The notes: a model not told the origin generated them from the sequence alone. 64,000 nucleotides of DNA from an uncultured bacterium (GCA_902775025.1 CACYKP010000002.1:15558-79557); one strand, 5' to 3'; counted from the first letter of the stretch, positions 56,126-64,000 are shown. Numbers and translations: made by a program.

Positions 56126-56626
56126 TTATGCCTGTTCATCTAAAATCGGCTGAATATCAAGGGTTGATAGTGTGCGTGTCGCTTTTGCAAATTCCAGAGA
56201 ACCGGGGGGTGTTGTTACTGCTAAAGATGCTACAAATCCAGCCGATAGTCCTGCGACTATTCCTGCTACGGCACCTAAAATCTTTTTTGTTACAGAAATT
56301 GATTTTCTTAAAATTATCATAGGAATAGCTAATCCTACAATCCCGCTCGATACAACAATTCCTTGTGCCAATCTTCTGCGTTTATTCATTGATTCCAGTG
56401 AAGAATTTGCGTTAACAAAAGCCTGAATTTTTGGGGCAGTATCTAAGATTTTTTTATATGATGCTTCAAAGGTGTCAACTTGCTCTTTAGGGAGTGAGAG
56501 CTTACCGGCTTTGTTACCGTCGGAGTCGATTACTTCGTATATTGCTCTGCCGTTAGGTAAATACCCCGCGCGCAATACGTTACCGTATGAATTAGGTTTT
56601 AAATTAGCTGATAAACTATTTACCAT
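56126..56626 (-). CDS. Lineage-specific membrane protein (2 TM)
   Basis: MVNSLSANLKPNSYG leader, two hydrophobic helices, SD AAGG. Confidence 0.75.
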   Translation of the reverse strand: MVNSLSANLKPNSYGNVLRAGYLPNGRAIYEVIDSDGNKAGKLSLPKEQVDTFEASYKKILDTAPKIQAFVNANSSLESMNKRRRLAQGIVVSSGIVGLAIPMIILRKSISVTKKILGAVAGIVAGLSAGFVASLAVTTPPGSLEFAKATRTLSTLDIQPILDEQA

Positions 56627-56743
56627 ATAAACGCCTTTTCCTTTGATAATTATATAATTTTTGTGAAAAAAATTCAATATTTTTGTATGATTATTTTTAT
56701 AATTTATAGAAACAAATTTAAGATTTTGAATTTTTATAAAATT

Positions 56744-58042
56744 TTATCCCTTTAGTCTCCAATAGTATTCGACTAAATAACTTATTGCATCAAACGGGTG
56801 TTCGAGAAATTTATATTCACGGTTTGATTTAATTTGGATATGTGTGGGAACATCTACGATAGAAGTTCCTTCTTTGAAAGACAGGTTGTAAATATTGTAT
56901 AAAATCCATTTACATCTTCTGGGATCAATAAAAACGTGTCTTTCGCCTTTTGAATTTCGGACTCTTGCGTTAAAGGCGGAGATGCGGTTCATTATAGGCG
57001 GGTTGTAGTTTCTTAGTCGGAATTTTACATCTTCATAACCGTGTTCTTTTAGGGCATTTTTTATTATTGCATAGTTTGTGTATTCGCTCTGTGTACTTCT
57101 ATTGTCGCCAGAAGCATCACCATTTATTATAATTTCGGATTTATGATTTGGGTATCTTTTTATAAATTCTTCAATACATTGTTGAGTTGAAGTATTTTCA
57201 ATTACTATTTCGTCAAAAAAATAGACATCTTCTTTGTCTTTGTGAGCAACAGCCCAGCACATAGGATCTACGTTAAAATCACAGGTAAGGTGTAGTGGTA
57301 AATTAGGGTTGTATTTGAGATGAAGCTTATTTTCTTCATCAAATCCTTTTACAACAAGTCCTGATGTATAGTTTCCAAATTCACCGAGAACATTAATCCT
57401 ATAGTATTCTTCGTCAAAGCTTTCCTTCATAGACTGAATAAAGTGCGGGGGCAAATAAATATTGTTAGTCGTGGGGGCAATAATTAGTCGGTAGTTTTCC
57501 TTAGAGTGTTCTACGAATCTTTGATATATCCAGCCTTTATCGCCTTGCGGATTTGTGTGCCCAAAGAGGCGGTAGCGAAAATCCACCCAGTTATTGCCTC
57601 TATAAGTATTTCTTAATCTTCCTAAAAGTTGTTTAAAAGAACTGTCAGAGATTTGTGAAGCTTCTTCAATTTCAGCCCAATGAAGGTTTAGTGATTTGAA
57701 TTTTTCCGGATCATCTAACGCTGTAAAAAGAATTTCAGAGCCGTTAGAGAATTTTATTATTTTATCTATTTTATTATAGGTGTAATCTTTGTTTTGAATA
57801 AACCCAAAGTTTTCGAGGTGGTCCAAGTATGATACAAGAGTTGTTTTACGAACGAGTTCATACTCTTTAGCACCGACCATTCCTTTAGAGTTTGGATATT
57901 TCATAGCGAGCAGGATGCCCAAAAGTGAACCGCACCAAGTTTTACCGCTTCCATAGCCGCCTTGATAAATAGCGACATCGAGTGCATTATTATGCGGAAT
58001 TTCAATAAATTCTTTTTGTTTATCCAGTAGTTTATAAATCAA
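56744..58042 (-). CDS. Phage terminase large subunit (PBSX-type)
   Basis: YQGGYGSGKT Walker A, AEIEEAS Walker B, GRLR, TNP, CDFNVDP and HPFDAISY nuclease motifs; SD AAGGAGG. Confidence 0.93.
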   Translation of the reverse strand: MIYKLLDKQKEFIEIPHNNALDVAIYQGGYGSGKTWCGSLLGILLAMKYPNSKGMVGAKEYELVRKTTLVSYLDHLENFGFIQNKDYTYNKIDKIIKFSNGSEILFTALDDPEKFKSLNLHWAEIEEASQISDSSFKQLLGRLRNTYRGNNWVDFRYRLFGHTNPQGDKGWIYQRFVEHSKENYRLIIAPTTNNIYLPPHFIQSMKESFDEEYYRINVLGEFGNYTSGLVVKGFDEENKLHLKYNPNLPLHLTCDFNVDPMCWAVAHKDKEDVYFFDEIVIENTSTQQCIEEFIKRYPNHKSEIIINGDASGDNRSTQSEYTNYAIIKNALKEHGYEDVKFRLRNYNPPIMNRISAFNARVRNSKGERHVFIDPRRCKWILYNIYNLSFKEGTSIVDVPTHIQIKSNREYKFLEHPFDAISYLVEYYWRLKG

Positions 58043-58093
58043 AATTTCCTCCTTATATATTCAACAAAATATGTATTTTGATGTAAAACAATA

Positions 58094-58136
58094 AAACCCT
58101 CGCCCCTTGGGGGAGAGGGGTAGGGTGAGGGGTTTT
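58094..58136. repeat. C-rich/G-rich palindromic repeat
   Basis: AAAACCCTCGCCCCTTGGGGGAGAGGGGTAGGGTGAGGGGTTTT. Confidence 0.75.
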
Positions 58137-58149
58137 AATTAATTTTTAT

Positions 58150-58774
58150 ATGTCATTTTCTTTGACCGCAAAGAAAATGACGAAAAGAAACTCCCCAAGC
58201 TGAACTACGTTCACTAATCAATTGTACAGTTCGACCTGAGCAACTTAACTCGGGATTTTCAGGGATAAATGGCTATGGAAATTAAAAACCAGAAGAAAAA
58301 ATGTATTCTTCCATTTATCAACCTGCCAATCCCTCAAACAGAAGTTGCTTTGTAGTTGTCTCACTAACATTGATTGTTCACTTCGTAAAGCTTGGGTCTC
58401 TGCTTGTTTCATCAACGCAAGAAAAAAATTTATTAACTAAAACATAGAGGGGTTTGGGGCATTACGGAATGAGCAAACAATCTAGGTGAAGCAACAACAA
58501 AGAGAGTGTTGTTTGAAGGGCAGGCGGGTTGGTAAATGTCTGCTTGTAAAAAACTCCAAGTTATACTTTCCAGAGTACATTTACCCCCGAAAGTCCTGAG
58601 TTCACTCGATTAGGCTGAGCCGTAGAATTGTTTAGCGAATGTAGTGTCAGCCCGTCTTGGATTATTCGGGGTGTCGGCAGAGTAACGTCTGACCGACACC
58701 TTACGGGCTTACGCCCTACCGAAAATCCGCCAAGAGTTTCTTTTTCCACTTTCTTTACGGCTAAAGAAAGTGGA
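58150..58774. repeat. About 625-bp foldback element of two diverged inverted arms with hairpin ends
   Basis: 58199-58389 aligns to the reverse complement of about 58463-58651; terminal hairpins match; AT/TA-rich flanks. Confidence 0.8.
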
Positions 58775-58851
58775 TATAATATAAGATAACAAAATTACAC
58801 TAAATTAATAATAAATGTTTTACATCAAAATACATAAAATGGTGTATAAAT

Positions 58852-58885
58852 AAAAAGCAAGGTTTGAAAACAAACCTTGCTTTTT
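58852..58885. terminator. Bidirectional terminator separating tail genes from terL
   Basis: AAAAAGCAAGGTTTG-AAAA-CAAACCTTGCTTTTT. Confidence 0.8.
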
Positions 58886-58892
58886 ATATCCC

Positions 58893-59351
58893 CTACGCCC
58901 ACTTACAAAATATTGTCTGAAAGCACGCTACTGAATTTTTCATCAAAAACCTTTTAAATCTGTTTACTCCGCTTGTTTCCAGAAGCGTGTTAAAAACAAC
59001 AGTAGAAAAACTTCTGTCGTTATCAATATATTCGTGATGCTCACACAAGATATCGTGGATTAATGCAGGAATTAAAAACCTGTTATCAGTATTAGCACCT
59101 ATAATACGCCAAAAAATACGTGGAATAGATGCCCCGTCATAACAGTATCCTTTTGGAATAGAAAATTCATACTGCTTATTTTTTCTGTAGTCGTTCAATT
59201 GGACTTTCAATTCTTTTTTACAAATAAAAGGGTATTTTTCAATAGATTTTTTTTCATCTTTTGTCATAGAAGGAATATAATATCTTATTCCGACGGAGGG
59301 ATTTTCGTTGAAGAAAATTCCGACATTTTTATTTTTACACCAGCAAATCAT
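58893..59351 (-). CDS. DUF1353-family phage protein
   Basis: IPKGYCYDGASIPRIFW...ALIHDILC; start 59351 with GGAGG SD. Confidence 0.85.
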   Translation of the reverse strand: MICWCKNKNVGIFFNENPSVGIRYYIPSMTKDEKKSIEKYPFICKKELKVQLNDYRKNKQYEFSIPKGYCYDGASIPRIFWRIIGANTDNRFLIPALIHDILCEHHEYIDNDRSFSTVVFNTLLETSGVNRFKRFLMKNSVACFQTIFCKWA

Positions 59352-59352
59352 T

Positions 59353-59817
59353 TTATTCCTCCGATATTCCGTTTGCAGGTAATTCTTTATTTTCAAACAG
59401 GTAATCCATGTCATCAGATGTGTAGCCTAAAAGCAATCCAATCATATCGACTGTTCTGTTTCCGTCTTTATCAGTTGCCCCTCTGTAGAAGTTGTTTGCT
59501 CTAAATTCTATTGCTAAAGCTTTCAAATCAATTTGAGGTGCTTGTTGTGCAATTAAATTTTTGAGGTCATCAAAGTCCATTCCCAAACCGTAATACAATG
59601 CTCTTTCAACATCTGAAGGAGTAAGGGTTAAGCTATCAAGTCTTTGACGTTCTTTTACTTCTATTTCTTCAGGTGTAAGGTATTCACCATTATATAACTG
59701 ATAATCAATATCAGTTTCTTCAATAGAAGTATAAACCATAAATTTAAGAGCTTGTTCAAGTTCTTCTCTTGTATCTTTTGCTAATATTATTAAATTATTA
59801 TTCTTTGCTATAAACAT
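59353..59817 (-). CDS. Putative tail-fibre assembly/chaperone-like protein
   Basis: Directly downstream of and overlapping the fibre gene; YQLYNGEYLTPEE..E pattern. Confidence 0.45.
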   Translation of the reverse strand: MFIAKNNNLIILAKDTREELEQALKFMVYTSIEETDIDYQLYNGEYLTPEEIEVKERQRLDSLTLTPSDVERALYYGLGMDFDDLKNLIAQQAPQIDLKALAIEFRANNFYRGATDKDGNRTVDMIGLLLGYTSDDMDYLFENKELPANGISEE

Positions 59818-60986
59818 TATGATACCTCACTTTCCGAACCTTTTGCATAGATAAATCTAAAAGCATTTAGCGTACCTGCTAAGGTATAGTTAATTTGGAT
59901 AACATCATTTTTAAAAACAGGTAATATGTCGGAATATGCACCTCCATTCCCAACATAAGCAGCATTAGAAGTCATTCCGTTTGTTGTGTTTATAATTTCT
60001 CCCCATTGAGCGTTTGCAGTTGCTTTTTTTGATATATAAAACCATCCATTTGCAGGGGCAGTATAAGTCGAACCACTTGCACCTAGAGTTAAATTAACAT
60101 AAGCATCACTAGGCATACCCATTCCACTCATAAGGATTTTTGCTTGGTTTGTTGTATTTGTTAAATCAATATCAGCCTTACCGTTTAAGTCGGTTGCGAT
60201 ATTATCTATATCAACCTGAATATCTGTCTTAACGCTAGTGCCAATTACAATATAGTAAAGAACTTTTATTGTCTGTGGCTGAACAGTTGTGGAGTTGCCA
60301 TAGATAGAGTTGCTATCGGAAGCATCGAAATTAACAGTTCCCCTAGTAGAGTATGTACCGTTACCGAAATCTTTCGTGTTAGATATTGTTGATTTCGAGA
60401 ATGCTTGAGTTGCTGATGAATATCGGCCAGCACTTGAAGAGGCAAGCCAATTTAATGTACCAGTTATATTAGGCAATCCTGCTTCAACCAAATCGCCTAA
60501 AGCAACTACATCAGTTGTACCCTCTATAATACCTGTTATTTTTGGTAGTCTTACTGTGTTATTAGTTGAATTGTAAACAAATTTACCACACACACCGTAT
60601 TGCGTTACTGCGCTTTGCCAATCACTTTCGGTTGTGAATAAGCTGGAGTATTGTGTTCTTAGCCCTGCAATATAAGTAACAAATGCACTATATACTCCGC
60701 TACCTGAAATTAACGTTCCATCAAGCAAGTGTAGCCCTGCATCAGTAAGAGGAATAGTTGAAGCAACTATCTCACCGATGTTACGAGATGATAAATCAAA
60801 GTCTATTGTTGTATTAGAGCTTTGGTTAGCAGAAAAACTTCCTTTTTGCTGTCCATTTTGAGTAAAAGATACAATCCCGTTACCGACAGACGGAATGTTT
60901 ATACTATTTACTGTATCAATTATTTCATTAATTTTATCAACCTCTGACAAAGGTTGTATATCATTAGTTAATTTATTTAATGTCAT
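59817..60986 (-). CDS. Phage tail fibre/collar-domain protein
   Basis: IGEIV..TIP...HLLDG, VRLPKI, EAGLPNITG, TVQPQTIKVLYYI and C-terminal YTAPANGW. Confidence 0.8.
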   Translation of the reverse strand: MTLNKLTNDIQPLSEVDKINEIIDTVNSINIPSVGNGIVSFTQNGQQKGSFSANQSSNTTIDFDLSSRNIGEIVASTIPLTDAGLHLLDGTLISGSGVYSAFVTYIAGLRTQYSSLFTTESDWQSAVTQYGVCGKFVYNSTNNTVRLPKITGIIEGTTDVVALGDLVEAGLPNITGTLNWLASSSAGRYSSATQAFSKSTISNTKDFGNGTYSTRGTVNFDASDSNSIYGNSTTVQPQTIKVLYYIVIGTSVKTDIQVDIDNIATDLNGKADIDLTNTTNQAKILMSGMGMPSDAYVNLTLGASGSTYTAPANGWFYISKKATANAQWGEIINTTNGMTSNAAYVGNGGAYSDILPVFKNDVIQINYTLAGTLNAFRFIYAKGSESEVS

Positions 60987-60988
60987 AT

Positions 60989-61312
60989 TCAGACTCCTAT
61001 AATTACTATTTTGTGCGAACCTGAAGATACCGTAGAACTTGATTTAAATTCTATTTTAACTTGATTTGCAGATAAAATATTAGTATTTTTTATTATTTCT
61101 TTTCCTGAAGAATTGTACAAACGGCAGGTGACATTTTGAGTTCCGAGGTTATGAGTAATATTCCAGGAACAGAGCCCGCTTTGAGGTGTTAAGGTCGAAC
61201 AAGATGCAGTATATTGCTTTAATCCTGTACGGTTTAACTGTTCTTCAAGATAGCTGAAATTTTGGTTAATTGTATTAAAAGCAGTATTTGCTTTATTAAT
61301 TGCTGTTGTCAT
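60989..61312 (-). CDS. Small phage structural-like protein
   Basis: ITHNLGTQNVTCRLY motif seen in tail-associated proteins. Confidence 0.55.
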   Translation of the reverse strand: MTTAINKANTAFNTINQNFSYLEEQLNRTGLKQYTASCSTLTPQSGLCSWNITHNLGTQNVTCRLYNSSGKEIIKNTNILSANQVKIEFKSSSTVSSGSHKIVIIGV

Positions 61313-61382
61313 AATATTTCTCCGATAATTTTGAATTAGGTAGTAGTTTTTTGGAATTAAGAATTGTTCCTATAGACTGATT

Positions 61383-61470
61383 CACCCCACCCTACCCCTC
61401 CCCATAAGGGGAGGGAATTCCTTCCCCTCACGGGGAAGTGAGTTTGCAGGTCAGACACAGCCTGACATAC
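61383..61470. repeat. C/G-rich palindrome followed by a degenerate REP
   Basis: CACCCCACCCTACCCCTCCCCATAAGGGGAGGG; then GCAGGTCAGACACAGCCTGACATAC. Confidence 0.65.
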
Positions 61471-61510
61471 AAACTATAGAATTATATGAGCGTAGCGAAT
61501 TAATTAATTA

Positions 61511-61541
<31 letters not shown>

Positions 61542-61553
61542 ATTCAATTACCT

Positions 61554-62324
61554 CTATGCACTTGTACCCAAAGGTGTAATTGTTGTATTAAAACAACTGT
61601 TTAGATATGCATCTACTTCTGTTTTTGTATAAGCATCAGTTATTCCGTATCCTGCAAGGGTTGTTGATTTGTCAGCTTTACCGTTTACTGCAGAAAAGAC
61701 TCCGCCTGATTTAACAGGATTGTTAGAATTTTCAGTAGGAATGTTGTCAAAAGTTAATGCATTTTGTTTTGCATTCCAATTAGATTTATCTGCTTCAGTA
61801 ACGTGGACAGTTGAATTTGCAATATGAGTATCATAAGATGATGTATCAATAAAACCCATCATAACATCCCATTTATAAGAACTTCCGCTTTGTACTACAT
61901 ACACGTTAGTGCCGGCAGGATATTTTTTCCCGCTTCCTTCAATAAAGCTTGATGTTGTAGTAAACGCATCTGTTACGTTATACAAATATCCGAGATTTGA
62001 AGCGGAAGGTGTAGGTAGAGATGCAAAAGCTATACTTCCAGATGGTGTTATAGCTGATGCTATTTCTGACTTTAGTGCATAATTCGAAGCATCTGATAGT
62101 TCTGCAACAGTTGTAGGAACGGATATGTTCACCGTAACAGGTGATGTAGCATTTGCGGTAAATGTTCCGACTGTTGTATTATTCTTTTTTATTGTTAATT
62201 GACCATTACCGATTGATGATGATAAAGCCCTTTTTTTAACTTCTGTATCTAAATAGCTAAAATTCTCATTTATTGTTTGTGCATCTGTTTGTGCTTTTGT
62301 TATTACTTCTTGTTGTGTTGCCAT
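61554..62324 (-). CDS. Tail-fibre-like protein
   Basis: GNGQLTIKKN..TVGTF.AN, VPTTVAELSD, HIANSTVH, KQNALTFD, TTLAGYGITDAYTKTEVD repeats. Confidence 0.72.
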   Translation of the reverse strand: MATQQEVITKAQTDAQTINENFSYLDTEVKKRALSSSIGNGQLTIKKNNTTVGTFTANATSPVTVNISVPTTVAELSDASNYALKSEIASAITPSGSIAFASLPTPSASNLGYLYNVTDAFTTTSSFIEGSGKKYPAGTNVYVVQSGSSYKWDVMMGFIDTSSYDTHIANSTVHVTEADKSNWNAKQNALTFDNIPTENSNNPVKSGGVFSAVNGKADKSTTLAGYGITDAYTKTEVDAYLNSCFNTTITPLGTSA

Positions 62325-62337
62325 AAATTTAATCTCC

Positions 62338-62883
62338 TTATTCTGTTATATTCATAATACTTACATCTAACATCGCATCTAAAATTTCTAAAGTGTTCAT
62401 AACATCACTTTCAGTTTCTACTATTACTTTTGAGCCTAAGACATATCCATTAAAGGATTCCGTTGAATAAATAACTGTTTTGGAATCTGTTATTGTCATA
62501 TCGGCATTAATAAGATGCTTGTTTTGCCAAGTTCCTTTGAAAACACCGGTTACGGCAAGCAAATTCTTAATTTCAAGCTTATATCTGGTATTATCAATTT
62601 TCCAGTCATTTTGCTTAAATTCAATCCAAGCCATACCAATTTGGCATTGGTCAGCAAGTTCTTTTATTTTTTGAGCGTAGTATTTTGACGAATAATCTAA
62701 GTTTTGAACTTTTCCGTCCATCTTGACTGCCCAATCTTTAGCGAGTTCTGTATAATAATCTGCACCGATAGAAGAATTTGCATCAATACTGTCATTCACC
62801 GATGTTGCTTCCGCAGAGCCGGAACTGCCTTTTGAGAAAATCTCTGCGGAAGTATTGAATTTAATCTTTTCTACTTCAGGCAT
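62338..62883 (-). CDS. Phage-associated hypothetical protein
   Basis: AKDWA.K...DYSSKYYA motif; co-oriented in the cluster. Confidence 0.6.
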   Translation of the reverse strand: MPEVEKIKFNTSAEIFSKGSSGSAEATSVNDSIDANSSIGADYYTELAKDWAVKMDGKVQNLDYSSKYYAQKIKELADQCQIGMAWIEFKQNDWKIDNTRYKLEIKNLLAVTGVFKGTWQNKHLINADMTITDSKTVIYSTESFNGYVLGSKVIVETESDVMNTLEILDAMLDVSIMNITE

Positions 62884-62885
62884 AA

Positions 62886-63257
62886 TTAAACTCCTTCAAC
62901 CTTTTTCGGGTAAACAGTTATGGTATTAATATCACCGATATTTCCTGATGCAAAAGTCAAAGTATCTTCAATATTGCTTTCTTCATCACAAATCTTGACA
63001 CCGTAAAAATACACAGCACATGATTCATCTTTAGGTACGGTTAAAAGATTAGTGAAATCACCTGTTAAGTAAAACAATACCTTTGAAGAAAAATTACTGT
63101 TAACAGAAAGTTCATTCCCTATTGGCTTTCTGTTAATATCCTGAACTGCAAAATATACGGTATAGTTTTTATCTGTAGGAATACCGCTTACTGTAAAAGT
63201 TCCGCTATCCCCCTGTACAAGAGAGATATCCGCATTTTTGTCAACTATAAAAGCCAT
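62886..63257 (-). CDS. BppU-N-like baseplate/tail protein
   Basis: LVQGDSGTF...YTVYFAV...LT...T..L...YFYGVKI pattern. Confidence 0.5.
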   Translation of the reverse strand: MAFIVDKNADISLVQGDSGTFTVSGIPTDKNYTVYFAVQDINRKPIGNELSVNSNFSSKVLFYLTGDFTNLLTVPKDESCAVYFYGVKICDEESNIEDTLTFASGNIGDINTITVYPKKVEGV

Positions 63258-63266
63258 TTTTCCTCC

Positions 63267-63734
63267 TTATATTCCAAAATCGCTAACTGTTTGCATAAGA
63301 CATTCCTGAACAAAATCAGGAGTTGCAGTTTTTCTTTCTTGTAAAGACACCATATAATTTTCAGTTAATTCCTGATAAAAATCCGGTAATTTGTATGTAA
63401 TTATTTCAACATTCTGTCCTAATTCAATTCCTGCTTTGATAGGGATTAACAAATCAGAGAGAAAATCTCGTGTTGAACCGTCTTTCATGTTTACTTTTCT
63501 TCTTATAAAACCTAAAGAAGTGGAGAAAAAATCTTTTTCAAACTGTTCCTGCCTTCTTTTCGCCAAAACATCATCAAGATTGGGTATTAACTCTATTTCA
63601 CCGTTTTTGACCGTATAATTATCACGATTTTTTTCAAATTCAGCCATTGTGCACAAATCTGTGTACATACATTTTTCTGAATACTTATAATCAGCACAAT
63701 CATAAATTTGCTCGTCTTTTATTCTGTAAAACAT
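63267..63734 (-). CDS. Putative tail-fibre chaperone-like protein
   Basis: Immediately downstream of a fibre C-terminus, the same arrangement as 59353. Confidence 0.45.
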   Translation of the reverse strand: MFYRIKDEQIYDCADYKYSEKCMYTDLCTMAEFEKNRDNYTVKNGEIELIPNLDDVLAKRRQEQFEKDFFSTSLGFIRRKVNMKDGSTRDFLSDLLIPIKAGIELGQNVEIITYKLPDFYQELTENYMVSLQERKTATPDFVQECLMQTVSDFGI

Positions 63735-63736
63735 AA

Positions 63737-64000
63737 CTAATTATCTCCTTTCATAGGATAAAAATAATACGCTCCCATTTTCCTGCTTACTGAAACGACA
63801 TCTCCTTCACAAACCCTAAAAAGCGAACCTGAATAAACCGATTTTCCGCCTGAATAACCGCAATGTCCATGCACAACTTTTCCGTTTACATAAACGTATT
63901 GAGTACTATCTACACCGTCAATACCGGCATATACATACCCGTTTGCCCCTACGGTATATGGCATTGTTATTGAAATTCCTTTAGAATAATCAGGAGCGTT
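63737..64000 (-). CDS. C-terminal end of a tail-fibre-like protein (starts off window)
   Basis: Frame stays open beyond 63964: NAPDYSKGISITMPYTVGANGYVY..., similar to the TYTAPANGW C-terminus of 59817. Confidence 0.6.
   Translation of the reverse strand, partial: NAPDYSKGISITMPYTVGANGYVYAGIDGVDSTQYVYVNGKVVHGHCGYSGGKSVYSGSLFRVCEGDVVSVSRKMGAYYFYPMKGDN

Follow-up and report, generated by a model that had tools for sequence, protein, structure and literature searches.

Gene transfer agents (GTAs) of the RcGTA type, known from Alphaproteobacteria, are phage-derived clusters of head, tail and packaging genes that are inherited vertically under purifying selection and carry no integrase or replication genes. 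To our knowledge, GTAs have been proven in few lineages only, and FpGTA of Faecalibacterium prausnitzii, reported in 2026, is the first from the gut and the first that is podovirus-like. FpGTA has been shown experimentally (40-nm particles, ~8.5-kb host fragments, proteomics), and its genes form two operons (10.5 and 5.5 kb) lying 125 kb apart (Borodovich et al., Nat Commun 2026, PMC12946183). We analysed a 64,000-nt stretch from an uncultured bacterium of the order Gastranaerophilales (CACYKP010000002.1:15558-79557, in our notation G000:C2:15558-79557), here called the window, which ends in tail-fibre genes, a DUF1353 gene and the large terminase gene terL (minus strand, 56744-64000). A sequence-only reading of this end had proposed that the phage genes are domesticated, GTA-like or tailocin-like, rather than an intact prophage. 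Coordinates refer to the whole window unless a contig is named; G000 is the genome under study, other G-numbers are further genomes of the order, C marks a contig and L a locus or viral contig.

The end of the window holds the last third of a chromosomal element of ~22 kb. This element comprises the whole late operon of a temperate P22/T7-type podophage and no more. We consider it very probable that this operon is vertically inherited and maintained by selection, and we favour, with clearly more reserve, the whole statement that it is a domesticated late operon kept for making particles and packaging host DNA.

The element reads u120 (Cys-rich), u101 (possibly the small terminase, TerS), u127, portal, scaffold, major capsid, head protein, lysozyme, adaptor, nozzle, an N/S-rich protein, a small transmembrane (TM) protein, fibres, DUF1353 and, as the last gene, terL. 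In the window, the minus strand carries in order the fibre-like open reading frames (ORFs), DUF1353, an 850-bp gap, TerL, a 183-aa ORF, pnp and further host genes. This is the order, with a terminator ahead of terL, that the sequence-only reading had given, and it was also right about the Shine-Dalgarno (SD) sequence of terL (Table 1). The missing portal gene, in which it saw a sign of domestication, is a truncation artefact: C2 ends 800 bp past the window, where it overlaps C83 by 99 nt, and homology with a contiguous relative (G001:C21:36893-53645) places the continuation on C83, C78 and C70. Portal and capsid genes were found there (on C70 and C78) and in G001. The cluster is therefore one block of ~17-22 kb that was split by the assembly, and not, as supposed, a system split over loci.

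By gene content, FpGTA and the element are both podovirus-like chromosomal clusters of gut bacteria with TerS-like, TerL, portal, scaffold, capsid, short-tail, fibre and lysis genes. Both lack prophage maintenance genes, and FpGTA is present in all species and strains examined. [quoted passage not shown] RcGTA is siphovirus-like, begins with terS-terL-portal, has a reduced T=3 head, packages ~4 kb and is under host regulators (CtrA etc.), whereas the element is podovirus-like, has terL last and keeps capsid genes as long as those of the parent phage. The PBSX/skin-type defective prophages of Bacillus subtilis are likewise chromosomal defective phages with packaging and structural genes kept; the likeness of TerL is at family level only (PF04466), and TerL homologues are named 'PBSX family' in the sources. 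PBSX differs by its contractile tail, own repressor, late sigma-like control and killing of non-lysogens, and it packages host DNA, which for the element is proposed from its gene set.

Host genes bound the element. In G001, the flanks are an alcohol-dehydrogenase-like gene (ADH) on one side and genes for a 784-aa protein, TPS, ATP-grasp and LptC/LptD on the other, and a PF00589 search of this 517-kb contig detected integrases only far off, none of them within 440 kb of the element. The left edge in G000 is ADH directly beside u120 (C27 to C70). At the element edges in G000 we detected no tRNA, integrase or boundary repeat above chance (the longest word common to both boundaries has 11 nt; shuffle mean 9.9, maximum 13), in agreement with the earlier statement that no integrase or att site marks the boundary. 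Related elements in G113 and G198 adjoin gmk, glyS, rpsP, rnpA and flagellar genes. The parental early module (integrase, S24 repressor, RecT/YqaJ, DnaB) is absent. What the element holds is thus what is expected of a GTA, a phage-like head, tail and packaging cluster without genes for integration, lysogeny and replication; in an intact temperate prophage, the late genes would be joined to an integrase and att sites, a repressor switch and replication genes. The element does not fit a capsid-forming satellite (cf-PICI) either, having no integrase or replication genes and having adaptor, nozzle and fibres.

Within the genus, the element is inherited vertically at a conserved locus. A TerL protein tree and a DNA tree of PNPase, the host marker, agree on their supported splits across 19 genomes: both contain an 8-genome clade with G000 (98/97 and 100/99), G309+G323, and G271+G327+G338, and they conflict only where support is weak. 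The 31 genus elements are monophyletic (99/97), with the integrase-bearing L004/L130/L131 phages as sister group (92/81). The left junction ADH|u120-u101-u127 was detected in five species (G000, G001, G315, G333 and G336, the assemblies that reach it). The 1.5 kb downstream of terL groups by host clade, and the terL-orf183-pnp adjacency is common only to the closest relatives, G334 and G168. Beyond the genus, the elements of genera g19 and g26/g34 form a polytomy with true phages, and monophyly of all late-operon elements was not rejected (approximately unbiased test, p=0.33).

TerL was detected in 197/301 species genomes of the order, usually as a single copy, and its distribution is all-or-none per genus (e.g. 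19/20, 36/36, 38/38 and 11/11 versus 0/8, 0/15 and 0/17). Among the 60 species sampled from the genus, 56 have a TerL at 84-92% identity and 55 a full-length capsid gene, almost always in one intact copy, and every genome except one (83% complete) has TerL and/or capsid. The reading frames are intact for 56/57 TerL and 55/56 capsid genes; the exceptions are an internal stop in the G335 TerL and the split capsid of G000. The finding is neither a complete prophage nor a patchily distributed terL.

The structural genes are under purifying selection over long divergence. The ratio of nonsynonymous to synonymous differences (pN/pS) is 0.10-0.54 for 18 element genes, computed at saturated synonymous sites (pS 0.65-0.80; portal, nozzle and others from fetched loci): 0.10 for TerL, 0.11 for capsid, 0.19 for portal, 0.25 for nozzle and up to 0.54 for fibre. 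The host neighbour ADH, at 0.11, is like TerL, which is therefore not evolving neutrally. All 18 genes keep their length despite saturated synonymous divergence between species, and neutral decay is excluded because a neutral frame of 1.3 kb would not survive such divergence. Horizontal replacement of terL, considered because its pS is saturated and that of PNPase is not, was dropped, since the methylase, antiporter and DUF167 host genes are equally saturated (pS ~0.67). Domestication, the core of the sequence-only reading, is supported because the TerL and PNPase trees agree, the site is shared, the element is present genus-wide and selection is purifying.

The encoded particle is a short-tailed phage head with fibres. 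In G001, the 621-aa protein is the portal (phrog_332 6e-36; PDB 9k09, cyanophage A4 portal, 5e-9) and the 297-aa protein the major head protein (phrog_267 6e-20), while by PHROG matches the 166-aa protein is lysozyme-like and the 232-aa protein is a tail protein. The AlphaFold (AF2) model of the 514-aa protein (pLDDT 83, pTM 0.84) matches podovirus nozzles, best Pa223 (E 2e-18, TM 0.72), and also VP1, Pan3, P22 gp10, Sf6 and T7 gp12. The predicted short tail of portal, adaptor and nozzle, the last with a modelled beta-propeller fold, corresponds to a P22/T7-type podovirus particle. TerL retains its ATPase and nuclease motifs, as had been stated: Walker A (GGYGSGKT), a Walker-B-like LHWAEIEE, and the Asp motifs CDFN, GDASG and FDAI at the expected nuclease positions (read by eye). 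Pfam and PHROG searches gave no match for u120, u127, u404, scaffold and the N/S-rich protein, and for u101 only a weak match to an unnamed PHROG.

The gene order in which the sequence-only reading saw an aberration is native to the temperate podophage family, because it is also that of a full prophage and of integrase-bearing viral contigs. The full prophage, G157:C6, has a second, sporadic TerL type (71% identity). Its leftward early genes encode an integrase (5e-32), an S24 repressor (Peptidase_S24), RecT, YqaJ and DnaB (DnaB_C), and its rightward late operon reads u120-u101-portal-scaffold-capsid-head protein-adaptor-nozzle-u127-N/S protein-large proteins-fibre-DUF1353-TerL. IMG/VR and ENA contigs of 39-48 kb read fibres-DUF1353-small TM protein-TerL-~165-aa ORF, and beyond this come an integrase gene in convergent orientation and early genes. 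These Gastranaerophilales temperate podophages (G157:C6; UViG_3300028805_000209, 43.2 kb) share the element's late-operon order, with 70-85% identity in TerL, 61% in capsid, 56% in portal and 55% in nozzle. They differ from the element by an integrase, an S24 repressor, RecT/YqaJ, DnaB and a giant, putatively DarB-like methylase/helicase protein of 940-3100 aa, and the full-phage TerL (71-74%) is sporadic (~9/60 genus genomes), whereas the element is in nearly all. L004 was rejected as evidence of an ordinary prophage at the window, its terL-adjacent integrase belonging to the genuine 39-48 kb phages.

In the viral contigs L004, L131 and L139, the fibres are directly preceded by a gene for a protein of 1479-3100 aa that has Eco57I-type methylase and SNF2/helicase domains; the element lacks this protein, and we take it to be reminiscent of phage P1 DarB. 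The early arm of L004 has a Tad3 (anti-Thoeris) gene; the element has no Tad3. G006:C17, of another family (L039/L040), has the order u101-147 aa-TerL-portal-scaffold-capsid-adaptor-nozzle with small leftward genes ahead; we take it for a probable true prophage that can serve as an outgroup.

We propose that the operon is kept by the host for the short-tailed, DNA-filled particles that it still makes. In these, HK97-type capsids would be loaded by TerL and portal in the headful mode and would bear the adaptor, the nozzle and variable fibres, and lysozyme and the small TM protein would free the particles by lysis. Since the element is capable of neither excision nor replication, the DNA in the particles would come from the host chromosome, in the manner of a GTA or of PBSX. 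Two genes are candidate regulators: u120, which heads the operon, and r113, a small ORF that lies divergently ahead of the nozzle gene. A second copy of the divergent region between r113, which is reversed, and the nozzle gene lies at G000:C60:13340-13753, where r113 is a frame-shifted 46-aa remnant beside a 652-aa gene. The duplicated region might mark a shared promoter. This second copy (~260 bp, 99% identical) explains the assembly break between C78 and C83, and it is at this point, ~200 bp upstream of nozzle, that most genus assemblies are interrupted.

Several observations count against this proposal. We rate the particle-making and host-DNA-packaging function as a close call that leans slightly towards doubt. 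The capsid protein has 297 aa versus 304 aa in the full prophage, and the scaffold (~200 aa) is the same size as in full ~30-48 kb phages, so nothing points to a smaller head such as classical GTAs typically have. Host clades differ from one another in the right flanks. By TerL, the genus clade is closest to integrase-bearing phages (79-85% identity); the element is therefore not isolated from the living phage gene pool and exchange is possible. Deeper in the tree, the TerL of G164 and G006 conflicts with host phylogeny, and the phage family therefore also moves horizontally. All genomes are metagenome-assembled genomes (MAGs), species representatives only. In G000 alone, the capsid gene (in the MAG assembly) has a 10-codon deletion and a frameshifting deletion of ~46 nt, the portal 3' end is unassembled, and an 850-bp repeat with a terminator precedes terL; the interrupted capsid and this repeat suggest that the G000 copy may have recently lost activity. 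The protein database held no intact capsid of the same species, the best match being 86% identical.

The explanation that competes best, which we nevertheless regard as unlikely, is a helper-linked defective prophage, whose operon is switched on by related temperate phages (the sporadic 71%-TerL and the L130/L004 types) or swaps modules with them. The role of the operon would then be that of an interference or decoy system against these phages, or of a reservoir of fibre and packaging genes, rather than of an autonomous GTA, and this we think equally unlikely. Potential helpers do exist, as full relatives live alongside the element in its genus, in some cases within one genome (G157, G271; ~9/60 genomes), and integrase-bearing phages are the nearest relatives by TerL. 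However, most element-bearing genomes lack a second phage copy. The fibre genes are the most variable and are mosaic with phage fibres, yet selection acts on all head genes and not on the fibres alone. The presence of u120 at the late-operon head in the full prophage too would fit a link to helpers, whereas the genus elements are monophyletic, track the host and give no sign of recent replacement by phage alleles.

It is improbable that the element is the inert remnant of a prophage which became fixed in the ancestor of the genus and has been decaying slowly, kept by chance or linkage. The broken capsid and the repeat insertion before terL in G000, the stop in the G335 terL and the cargo insertions at three hot spots could be taken as such decay, but TerL, capsid, nozzle and other frames are full-length in nearly all species at synonymous saturation, with the pN/pS values given above.

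Still less probable, to the point of being hardly credible, is an intact inducible prophage whose early half is missing from a fragmented MAG. The cluster does extend over four contigs with the C70-C78 gap open, and G000 has several integrases on small contigs (e.g. C84, C85). Against this, host ADH stands directly left of u120, a junction repeated in four other species, the whole element is contiguous and host-bounded in G001, and the C70-C78 gap falls in the portal-scaffold interval, which in relatives holds only cargo. A tailocin (tail-only bacteriocin), the other half of the sequence-only proposal, can be dismissed with near certainty: variable fibres and a chaperone-like DUF1353 gene would suit it, but selection has conserved terminase, portal, scaffold and capsid, and in place of a contractile or flexible tube the tail has a podovirus nozzle as its hub.

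The features of the cluster are listed in Table 1. Nine co-directional ORFs ahead of DUF1353 have no Pfam name and have fibre/virion PHROG matches; the 154-aa protein of the f154 family matched neither a Pfam nor a PHROG family. Fibre f476 of G001, to which two of the window's proteins are similar, matches tail-fibre PHROGs. DUF1353, just ahead of terL, is a conserved partner: the gene is present throughout the related elements and phages, and in G001 it lies 4 nt from terL.

Table 1. Features of the late-operon element and its borders in G000 (window coordinates; contigs beyond the window are named)
Feature	Position	Strand	Support and remarks
orf183, 183-aa ORF, fast-evolving host gene outside the element	56126..56677	-	usually next to pnp
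terL, large terminase, 432 aa, TTG start, AAGGAGG SD	56744..58042	-	PF04466 (Terminase_3) 1.2e-23; phrog_2 5e-36
Spacer, 850 bp, dispersed genomic repeat between DUF1353 and terL	58043..58892	.	at least 12 other genomic copies
GC-rich palindrome unit	58112-58130		within spacer
Perfect 17-bp hairpin and T-run, directly after DUF1353 stop	58850-58887		within spacer
DUF1353 protein, 173 aa	58893..59414	-	PF07087 3.2e-14; phrog_1158 'tail assembly chaperone' 2.3e-20; pN/pS 0.34
f154-family fibre-module protein, 154 aa	59353..59817	-	39-47% homologues at the same position in G120, G157, G113
Variable tail-fibre protein, 389 aa	59817..60986	-	weak similarity to fibre f476; 36-44% to G120, G113 fibres
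107-aa protein, C-terminus like virion structural/decoration proteins	60989..61312	-	phrog_2647 1.1e-6; phrog_2824
Intergenic gap with host-type repeats	61313..61553	.	GC-rich palindrome unit 61385-61403; ATTTTCC heptamer tandems 61511-61545
Fibre-like protein, 256 aa	61554..62324	-	phrog_38190 7e-21; phrog_3285 minor tail
181-aa protein with fibre N-terminal (attachment) segment	62338..62883	-	61% over 33 aa to N-terminus of G001 f476
f123-family fibre-module protein, 123 aa, conserved	62886..63257	-	45-61% orthologues in 9 genomes; pN/pS 0.40
f158-family fibre-module protein, 155 aa, conserved	63267..63734	-	63% to G001 f158; orthologues in 7 genomes; pN/pS 0.45
f183-family fibre-like protein, 169 aa, 3' part only	63737..64000	-	continues past window end
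Small TM protein, 202-aa N/S-rich protein, 511-aa nozzle	C83
Adaptor-like 219 aa, lysozyme-like 166 aa, head protein 130 aa, capsid (broken), scaffold, inserted cargo	C78
Portal N-terminal part, M48 peptidase cargo, u127, u101, u120, then host ADH	C70		running onto C27

We tried orf183 as a member of the element and rejected it: homologues (35-77%) lie upstream of pnp in 18/29 other genus loci, terL adjoins one in just two of the 18 (G334, and G168 with a two-gene insertion), and no homology to the post-terL ORF of related phages was detected.

Host repeats do lie inside the cluster, as the sequence-only reading had noted. The DUF1353-terL spacer has its other copies at 86-97% identity. They belong to a dispersed repeat of ~800 bp with 52-nt inverted ends, like a miniature inverted-repeat transposable element, with copies on C27, C29, C8, C59, C55, C11, C16, C44, C32, C41 and C17; it is often at contig ends and therefore a major cause of the fragmentation of this MAG. 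ATTTTCC heptamer tandems occur genome-wide, at 17 sites on 12 contigs, and GC-rich palindrome units lie between genes of the cluster. Together with the M48 peptidase cargo, these repeats are signs of long residence. Outside the window, the ends of the 7061-bp contig C61 overlap by 99 nt; it is therefore a circular molecule of 7 kb, either a plasmid or a small phage, that was binned with G000.

The three hot spots of cargo insertion are u127/portal, portal/scaffold and DUF1353/terL. At the first of these, G000 has an M48 metallopeptidase gene with signal peptide and TPR repeats (G000:C70:2244-3524), which is inserted in G319 too (65% identity). A family with a conserved C-terminal 'YYDF...NAY.QQ' domain, for which no database match was detected, recurs in and around the elements, sometimes several per locus (u404 in G001, a 415-aa protein after terL in G113, five members in G258 and a 59-aa fragment on G000:C78). 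In G198 (L035/L036, genus g26), eight tandem opposite-strand ORFs of 126-157 aa are inserted between adaptor and nozzle, and their similar sizes suggest a paralogue array.

Other genera of Gastranaerophilales have a compact cassette that resembles the late-operon element in TerL (55-59%), portal (33%), nozzle (25-29%), the small TM protein, the absence of maintenance genes and the single copy per genome. It differs in its length (~10 kb), its order (nozzle-coat...portal-TerL-TM), the absence of a fibre/DUF1353 module and a long separate TerL branch. A TerL in the 55-59% identity range that marks the compact cassette is absent from all sampled genomes of the genus, and the two forms do not co-occur in these genomes. 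The PNPase of the compact-cassette genera is as close to that of G000 as is the PNPase of the genera with the late-operon form. Within 5-9 kb of both the compact cassette (G105, g3) and the late-operon element (G001) we detected LptC/LptD and a d273-like gene, and both forms may therefore occupy the same chromosomal neighbourhood.

Our literature search found no paper that pairs Gastranaerophilales with 'gene transfer agent', and the papers that pair it with 'prophage' are unrelated. We suggest, as a possibility that we rate below the function itself, that Gastranaerophilales maintain by selection, genus-wide, podovirus particle cassettes of two architectures (~20-kb late-operon and ~10-kb compact) with active temperate parents in the same hosts, which would form a natural series of GTA birth from prophage in a phylum without a known GTA. 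If true, a second, unrelated gut lineage would have a particle operon, and capsid-mediated DNA exchange may be common among uncultured gut bacteria. Because one order harbours the domesticated operon, full temperate relatives of it and a cassette that is reduced further, the steps of domestication, namely early-arm loss, fixation at one locus, entry of host repeats and cargo, and diversification of the fibres, would be open to comparison.

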